A stretch of DNA of 64,000 nucleotides from Escherichia coli. Its GTDB lineage: Bacteria; Pseudomonadota; Gammaproteobacteria; Enterobacterales; Enterobacteriaceae. The translations under genes were made by a program, and so were the position numbers. This document shows, one piece after another, positions 31,186-32,391 of this stretch; position 1 is the first letter of the stretch, and every line of letters begins with the position of its first letter. The stretch lies in assembly GCF_003334765.1 (NCBI RefSeq), contig NZ_QOWT01000003.1, one strand, 5' to 3'. Under the pieces are notes generated by a model. The model did not search any database. It saw nothing but the letters and a program-made list of their open reading frames with translations, and had not been told where the DNA came from.

Positions 31186-31710
31186 TTAGCCATTATCTTC
31201 TGAATTATCGTTTAAGAGTTCAATATATGCCTGCGCTTTACTCTTAACACTATCATCCTCACAATTGTTAATAATGTGATAGAAACATTGCATTGCGTTA
31301 TCGATATTTTTAGCCCCAATCTGACATTGACCCATACGATAAATAACTGAATAGTCATCATACGGGAAGTAATTGTAACTTAGTTTGTAAAGGTCATATG
31401 CTTGTTGATATTTCTTTTTGGGCTGACATACTGATGCAAAATCTTTTAGATACTCATGATTTTCGAACGCATAAATGCACAAGAATTTATAATAAATTTC
31501 TGCGTCCGTTATATTACCCTTTTCATGGTAGTCGAATGCATATGCATATATTCTATCAAGGATATCAGGAGTTAAACCATGTAGTAATGCCAGATTTTCT
31601 CCTTTCGATAATGCGTGTTTTAGTTGATTTGCCCATTCATCACTATTATTGAATATTTCAATTGTTTCTGTGCTCAGAATATTCCTCTGTGATGTGTCTC
31701 GTGATGCCAA
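31186..31710 (-). CDS. ygeG: class II T3SS chaperone (SicA/LcrH/SycD-like TPR protein)
   Basis: 174-aa ORF (true start may be about 11 codons in); TPR-like repeats with aromatic-rich pattern. Confidence 0.75.
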   Translation of the reverse strand: MASRDTSQRNILSTETIEIFNNSDEWANQLKHALSKGENLALLHGLTPDILDRIYAYAFDYHEKGNITDAEIYYKFLCIYAFENHEYLKDFASVCQPKKKYQQAYDLYKLSYNYFPYDDYSVIYRMGQCQIGAKNIDNAMQCFYHIINNCEDDSVKSKAQAYIELLNDNSEDNG

Positions 31711-31944
31711 ATTATTATTGATTGACTCATTGATATTTTTATATTTATCTTTTTTAAATTATGAGTTTTAAGCTTGCATTGCTTATGGTATATTTTTCAT
31801 TATTGGTAAAAGTACTGTTCACTACAAACTAATAACATCATTAGTTGTTTTACTAATATTCACCTTATTAGTTATCTTAATTACGACATTACATAAATGC
31901 CTTAATGTGTATGACCTGGATTCATAGTATCAATTGCCATTTTT

Positions 31945-32391
31945 TCAATGAAAATTAAAAAGGGGATTTTTGAGAAGGGTAGAATGTCGTTTGTTTTTTT
32001 CTTTATTATGTCTGGTGACGCGGGGGGATAGAACGTCTGTGCATATAGTAGTGAATTTATTCAGGTCTACATTATTCTCTATTTTGGTCAGTTTTATGAG
32101 TTCATTTACAGCCATACTCATTAAATCATCTGTTATCGAAAATTTATATATGCTCATAGCAGATAATATTGCTTGCTGAATTATCTCTTCAGAAATATCC
32201 GCTATCTTTATTGACAAATCATGTGTTAGATATTTTCCTCCAAGAGATTCTTGTTCAATATAATTTAAACCAGACCCCATTGTGATTTTAACTGGATTAA
32301 CGGATTTCTCTTCATTTTTCTTATTTTTGTTCTCCTGATCAGGAACTAATGGTTGCAGTGGTAGGCTATTATTAATATTTCGTGGCTTCAT
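31945..32391 (-). CDS. ygeF: hypothetical ETT2 protein (ygeF-like; annotated as a pseudogene in K-12)
   Basis: 148-aa ORF in the position of ygeF; no recognisable domain. Confidence 0.5.
   Translation of the reverse strand: MKPRNINNSLPLQPLVPDQENKNKKNEEKSVNPVKITMGSGLNYIEQESLGGKYLTHDLSIKIADISEEIIQQAILSAMSIYKFSITDDLMSMAVNELIKLTKIENNVDLNKFTTICTDVLSPRVTRHNKEKNKRHSTLLKNPLFNFH

Follow-up and report, generated by a model that had tools for sequence, protein, structure and literature searches.

A translocator-type chaperone gene without translocators in a decayed ETT2 island of Escherichia coli

Why should a gene for a class II, or translocator-type, chaperone of a type III secretion system (T3SS) stand in a chromosome with no translocator genes behind it? 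The question is raised by positions 31,186 to 32,391 of a 64,000-nucleotide stretch of Escherichia coli DNA (assembly GCF_003334765.1, contig NZ_QOWT01000003.1), referred to here as the window, in which the chaperone gene ygeG neighbours a second small gene, ygeF. The original prediction described ygeG as an orphan chaperone gene followed only by ygeF and then by unrelated small genes. The two open reading frames (ORFs) are indeed present, at 31186-31710 (174 aa from a TTG codon) and 31945-32391 (148 aa), but the minus strand carries both, with ygeF upstream of ygeG, and what comes after ygeG is a hairpin and then the regulatory gene ygeH, giving the transcription order ygeF, ygeG, hairpin, ygeH.

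The window is a chromosomal segment carrying a degenerate island for ETT2 (type III secretion system 2 of E. coli) at a tRNA-Gly gene (glyU). The 1.7 kb around ygeG and ygeF is 99.9% identical to E. coli RM10410 and was found in 3597 of 5426 complete E. coli genomes; near-identical chromosomes annotate 31186-31710 as ygeG and 31945-32391 as a frameshifted hypothetical gene, ygeF. We consider it likely that what lies here is a decayed ETT2 with its already known ygeF-ygeG pair, YgeG being a true chaperone homologue whose translocators, in genomes that have them, are encoded in another island, YgeF no fragment of a translocator, and the pair a relic. The finding is already known in the ETT2 literature and is a case of ordinary gene decay. 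To that literature our analysis adds a corrected gene order, the dismissal of ygeF as a translocator remnant, the description of ygeF as a real but weakly constrained gene confined to Escherichia, and the extra decay of this copy, namely the loss of the ygeG start codon, a 236-bp deletion upstream of ygeF and the loss of eivF.

YgeG and the whereabouts of its translocators

The ygeG gene proper occupies 31186-31677 on the minus strand (163 codons, the first of them CTG), the mechanical ORF reaching further to an in-frame TTG at 31710. In a phmmer search of PDB, YgeG matched IpgC with E=3.2e-30 over residues 21-158, followed by PcrH (1.1e-7), SycD (1.6e-4) and AcrH (3.7e-3). The Pfam domain TPR_3 was found twice, at residues 40-73 (E 4e-10) and 74-107 (E 1e-10), with a weak third TPR at 111-138, and the product is acidic (isoelectric point 4.7-4.8). 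In an AlphaFold model of a YgeG-YgeF fusion, considered further below, the YgeG part is all-helical, with nine helices at a predicted local distance difference test score (pLDDT) of 70-89. The best NCBIfam match is SicA (NF011859), at 119.2 bits under a cut-off of 184, and the LcrH_SycD model (TIGR02552) scores 73.8 bits under a cut-off of 104.8. The original assignment of ygeG to the SicA/LcrH-type TPR chaperones is thus borne out by the IpgC match and the two TPR_3 repeats, and the doubt that hidden Markov model analysis might find no TPR repeats in YgeG is removed.

Judged by these comparisons, YgeG truly belongs with IpgC, SicA and EicA in their branch of the class II (translocator) chaperones but is not the SicA orthologue. 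With IpgC of Shigella, SicA of the Salmonella SPI-1 system and EicA it shares a length of about 160 aa, an acidic composition and an all-helical TPR fold; it differs from them in lacking downstream translocator genes, in its sub-cut-off NCBIfam scores and, in the window, in the loss of its ATG start. Published tables already give it as the homologue in ETT2 of SicA and IpgC (PMC3977695 Table 1; PMC7232297 Table 1). A pattern scan of genome contigs for YgeG orthologues and their flanks gave 23 pattern matches, none of which was confirmed. The ratio of nonsynonymous to synonymous substitution rates (dN/dS) for ygeG is about 0.2 in pairwise comparisons, including that with the divergent haplotype L004 (a 4304-nt Logan contig from SRR36547128) at a dS of about 0.35, and ygeG is therefore held under purifying selection.

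Position gives YgeG no such company. Directly downstream there are no translocator genes (SctE/SctB); instead, a terminator-like hairpin with a 14-bp stem lies at 31126-31161 on the same strand, 25 nt past the ygeG stop codon and followed by an interrupted T tract, as detected in a terminator scan. Its computed folding energy (RNAfold) is -21.6 kcal/mol, and it is conserved in O157 at -21.4. The next gene is ygeH (29475-30851, minus strand), which encodes a HilA-family regulator matching the NCBIfam model YgeH (NF008870) with 1085 bits. The claim that no translocator genes stand beside ygeG holds well beyond its immediate flanks: tblastn with EipB, EipC and EipD returned nothing at E<=0.01 anywhere in the 64 kb, and nothing significant in any frame of 28000-33200.

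Where such translocators do occur is seen in the eip island of enteroaggregative E. coli (EAEC) 042, which we read directly. It adjoins nlpA and carries on one strand eicA, eipB (sctE), eipC, eipD and eilA, of which eicA encodes a SycD/LcrH-family chaperone, eipD a tip protein of the IpaD/SipD family and eilA a member of the HilA family. Identity is 45% between YgeG and EicA (E 1e-53) and 33% between YgeH and EilA (E 1e-62). The two loci are alike in order and strand, a class II chaperone gene preceding a gene for a HilA-family regulator, with both members paralogous; they differ in that only about 335 bp and the hairpin separate ygeG from ygeH, with no translocators between them, and in that nothing resembling ygeF lies upstream of eicA in the eip island. 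We infer that ygeG-ygeH and eicA...eilA are paralogous modules, one without and one with translocators. Earlier work likewise describes ETT2 as devoid of translocators and places these, together with EicA, in the eip island, mainly in ETT2-intact strains (PMC11068852; PMC4210603).

On this reading, ygeG would be without following translocators as the translocon genes of this lineage sit outside ETT2; where present, they would lie in the separate eip island by nlpA, behind the paralogous eicA and ahead of eilA. The orphan appearance of ygeG would then arise because the translocon module resides in a separate island with a paralogous chaperone of its own; in this strain the candidate partners still left would have gone with eivF and the core apparatus. 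A distant blastn search with ygeG against E. coli genomes at E<=1e-5 found a second place in 130 genomes and, in 54, a match of 60-80% identity only; those hits were lost at E<=1e-8, and as a measure of eip-positive genomes the counts are provisional.

Two further features of strain 042 may be recorded here. A small frameshifted ORF annotated as a hypothetical protein lies between eicA and eipB (L011 2744-2925) and has no similarity to YgeF. Genes annotated as T3SS effectors (ShET2/EspL2 family, EspY4 and "type III effector protein"; L010 23284-25449, 34993-37401 and 39367-41751) occur within about 50-90 kb of the eip island.

Decay of this copy and the co-activator idea

Compared with the ETT2 of O157 by megablast, the window lacks 8.7 kb (L012 11039-19765), the deletion junction being at 18858-18866. 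The loss takes a ghoT-like gene, eivF, eivG, eivE, eivA, eivC, eivI and most of eivJ, and tblastn with EivF, EivG, EivE, EivA, EivC and EivI found nothing in the 64 kb. What remains of the apparatus is damaged as well: the annotation of RM10410, 99.9% identical, records frameshifts or internal stops in sctU, sctQ, orgA, pbl and ygeK, and split ORFs are visible in the window too. Among these, ygeK (27853-28485) has an internal stop, and pbl (iagB-like; 28504-29006), epaS (sctU; 21635-22755) and epaO (sctQ; 18945-19932) are frameshifted. Mutational attrition of ETT2 has already been described (PMC7232297; PMC6030553), and the window resembles the attrited islands of K-12, O157 and septicaemic strains in its glyU site, gene order, multiple frameshifts, 8.7-kb eiv deletion and low G+C content, which falls to 30-37% over 18-36 kb. 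It differs from them only by a private polymorphism in the ygeG start codon, and in nothing essential.

That polymorphism, an A-to-C change at 31677, turns the ygeG start codon (31675-31677, minus strand) into CTG. In an alignment of start codons, the position is ATG in K-12-type, O157 and EC1515 sequences and in the divergent L004. Of 2968 complete genomes matching the region, none shares the exact 81-mer around the start of ygeG, and the change is one of only four single-nucleotide differences from RM10410 over 29000-35000. OkiPb01695, an unrelated strain, has ATA at the same codon, and the two cases together suggest that the ygeG start codon has been lost recurrently.

In ETT2-intact strains, YgeG would be expected to act like IpgC or SicA, holding the hydrophobic translocators EipB and EipC, partnering EivF, or both. 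From the island in the window neither role would be possible, the genes for EivF, the secretin, the ATPase and the export gate being deleted and other apparatus genes frameshifted, and the ygeF-ygeG pair would here be a relic in decay that retains, at most, some residual side effects on regulation. We favour this reading because eivF and apparatus genes are lost, ygeG has lost its ATG, ygeF is frameshifted and 236 bp are missing upstream of it.

Several observations weigh against so plain a verdict. The purifying selection on ygeG (dN/dS about 0.2) extends across E. coli, even to lineages without a working apparatus, and suggests some kept function beyond that of a pure relic. Deletion of ygeG in an avian pathogenic strain altered adhesion and, during one phase of growth, reduced the transcription of espE3 (PMC10463865; PMC11068852). 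In the window itself, the Shine-Dalgarno sequence AGAGGA is intact ahead of the CTG, and weak initiation there is therefore possible, so that a little YgeG may still be produced; the upstream in-frame TTG that opens the 174-aa ORF has no Shine-Dalgarno sequence. Finally, an origin of ygeG-ygeH by translocator loss and not by independent assembly is presumptive, being suggested by gene order and paralogy.

The best-surviving alternative to a pure relic gives YgeG a second job, that of co-activator of the AraC-type regulator EivF, as SicA is of InvF and IpgC of MxiE, and would make this task, instead of chaperoning, the reason for its retention. The chaperone branch that YgeG shares with IpgC and SicA, the purifying selection on ygeG and the espE3 effect of its deletion (PMC10463865) all fit the idea, as does the presence in intact ETT2 islands, including that of O157, of EivF, a protein with an AraC-type helix-turn-helix that is homologous to InvF and MxiE and encoded at the far end of the island. 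YgeG and EivF are the ETT2 homologues of the IpgC-MxiE and SicA-InvF pairs; co-produced as such a pair, however, they did not activate icaR or icaT, both tested as MxiE targets (PMC9241512). The window departs from those pairs further still. No EivF-like sequence is left in it, and no MxiE-box-like site with three or fewer mismatches was found in the 64 kb, the consensus used being that of MxiE, which may not be the site of EivF; no EivF-dependent promoter is known. Because the 8.7-kb deletion removed eivF, the EivF/YgeG pair cannot operate from this island. The suggestion in the original prediction of a co-activator partnership with an AraC-type regulator is therefore reasonable for ETT2-intact strains, where it is not new, and fails for this copy; given the effects of ygeG deletion on adhesion and espE3, some regulatory influence of YgeG in other strains is plausible. 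As the explanation for the retention of ygeG we hold the co-activator role to be possible, though the less probable account.

The neighbouring gene ygeF

Intact YgeF, as in O157, has 163 aa. In the window (31945-32391, minus strand) the gene has lost 2 bp from an A-rich run at about 31992/31993, a deletion that, as judged from alignments, replaces the last 30 or so residues and leaves an allele of 148 aa; the 163-aa form would end at 31902. The exact 148-aa allele occurs in 991 complete genomes, alleles of other lengths also occur, and the Prokaryotic Genome Annotation Pipeline (PGAP) flags ygeF as frameshifted in near-identical genomes.

A second lesion lies upstream, in the yqeK-ygeF intergenic region, where 236 bp have been lost between two copies of a 9-bp repeat, TATCACCTT. 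The direct repeats are 236 nt apart in O157, and an alignment identifies the single copy left in the window, at 32453-32461, as the scar. The missing segment (L002 3065-3300) is present in O157, EC1515 and OkiPb01695 and, at 82% identity, in L004; since it is present in this divergent haplotype, the segment is ancestral and the state of the window is a deletion. The deletion takes out the sole promoter-like match upstream of ygeF in O157, such matches occurring at chance frequency.

None of the searches made places YgeF in a recognisable family. YgeF had no Pfam match at E<=10, no NCBIfam match and no PDB match by sequence or profile, and thus resembles no unrelated family either. A PHROGs search gave only noise (E>=0.027). 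Exhaustive phmmer over 1.84 billion representative proteins produced 21 matches, 20 of which are YgeF variants or fragments; the remaining one, P0141 (976 aa, E 3e-4), aligns by way of eleven repeat units and was rejected as apparently spurious. AlphaFold modelled YgeF alone at a pLDDT of 50, predicting helices across 38-131 and disorder over the N-terminal 36 residues, where Asn, Lys and Pro abound and an LQPL stretch is invariant; a Foldseek search of PDB with this low-confidence model gave noise only (best E=1). In this prediction a polar, disordered N-terminus precedes a core of helices at about 38-131.

Of the true homologues, P0132 (132 aa, 46-51% identical) is the most divergent; it is encoded by L004 in the same yqeI-yqeJ-yqeK(-)-ygeF-ygeG context. 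Protein identities between L004 and the window are 97% for YqeI, 94% for YqeJ, 80% for YqeK, 84% for YgeG and 46% for YgeF, which makes YgeF by far the fastest-evolving of the proteins compared. Its conservation, as seen in the alignment with P0132, is limited to residues 1-133, the tail beyond not being conserved. L004 is itself a mosaic ETT2 haplotype, its nucleotide identity to the window falling from about 92% to about 75% along the contig, which suggests either that an old recombination event had its boundary near yqeJ/yqeK or that rates of evolution are very uneven.

Such rapid change invites the view that ygeF has no function as a gene and merely survives as an ORF in the AT-rich, H-NS-silenced DNA of the island. 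A dN/dS of 0.6-1.0 within E. coli, based on few substitutions between alleles, would agree with this, as would the several different frameshift alleles, the pseudogene label given by PGAP in many genomes, the absence of homologues outside Escherichia-type ETT2 and the low pLDDT. What speaks against it is the comparison over a longer span: in L004, at a dS of about 0.7, the start codon, the frame and a 132-codon core of ygeF are all kept, neither of the two indels relative to P0132 shifts the frame, and dN/dS on this long branch is about 0.5. In neutral simulations with 125 substitutions, the core stayed open in only 0.5%, and every frameshift falls within the non-conserved tail past residue 133. 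A non-functional ygeF therefore seems unlikely to us; because start and frame are kept, the indels are in frame and so few neutral simulations left the core open, YgeF is better taken as a real but weakly constrained, fast-evolving, small soluble protein found only in Escherichia.

If ygeF is a gene, its product might be YgeG's cognate partner, acting as a small secreted substrate or as a regulatory ligand and encoded just upstream of the chaperone gene, as in other substrate-chaperone pairs. Adjacency and orientation of ygeF and ygeG are kept even in L004, the most divergent haplotype; the hairpin past ygeG suggests that a ygeF-ygeG pair ends there; and the predicted disordered N-terminus with its invariant LQPL, as well as the fast evolution shared with many secreted substrates, would suit such a role. 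Yet in an AlphaFold model of the fusion YgeG-(G4S)6-YgeF there was no sign of docking, the YgeF N-terminus having a pLDDT of 25-27 as against 35-39 alone, a weak test given its 7-row alignment, monomer weights and lack of contact output. The two genes are also 225 nt apart, YgeF has no [PV]xLxxP chaperone-binding motif, frameshifted alleles are common, and the secretome of an ETT2-intact O2 strain contained no ETT2-dependent effector (PMC6030553). Partnership with YgeG is thus improbable. Its more specific form, in which YgeF would be a lineage-specific ETT2 substrate or an anti-activator-like ligand tuning YgeH or EivF, is slightly more doubtful still, nothing that we computed supporting it. 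Were YgeF a ligand or substrate of YgeG, ygeF-ygeG would form a self-contained regulatory switch outliving the decay of the apparatus, and as a ligand YgeF would give a modest handle on why the regulatory arm of ETT2 persists in many E. coli.

Least likely by a wide margin is the proposal in the original prediction that ygeF is the remnant of a translocator gene, of the SipB/IpaB, SipC or SipD type, to which its place beside a translocator-type chaperone gene and the translocators held between chaperone and HilA-like genes in the paralogous eip module lend some appeal: ygeF lies upstream of the chaperone gene, the wrong side for a translocator; in a six-sequence blastp search YgeF scored E>0.04 against EipB, EipC, EipD and the small ORF behind eicA; a profile search brought no PDB match; and its own start codon and frame are conserved in L004. 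Neither a hydrophobic segment (the maximum 19-residue Kyte-Doolittle value is 1.09, as against 2.67 for EipB and 1.74 for EipC) nor the chaperone-binding motif, which EipB has as PMLAPP at residue 62, was found in YgeF. At the level of sequence, a translocator or tip-protein fragment is thereby largely refuted. The gene ipgB1 lies upstream of ipgC, hence the idea that YgeF might be a WxxxE effector of the IpgB1 type; it was rejected, as YgeF has no tryptophan.

Surroundings of the pair in the island

Read along the plus strand from the annotated neighbourhood of near-identical genomes, the gene order is ygeQ, the epa and epr genes, ygeK, pbl, ygeI, ygeH, ygeG, ygeF, yqeK, yqeJ, yqeI, yqeH and yqeG. 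An Rfam scan of 27000-36000 gave no match, and promoter scans returned sites no more commonly than expected by chance, hence they were given no weight. The gene yqeK (32585-33010, plus strand), divergent from ygeF, is known from the annotation of near-identical genomes and has no NCBIfam match. Directly past it, at 33046-33126 on the plus strand, lies a 26-codon ORF that near-identical genomes annotate as conserved hypothetical protein WP_000655820.1. The ygeQ/pkgA-like glycoside hydrolase gene (17201-18853) is split into two ORFs.

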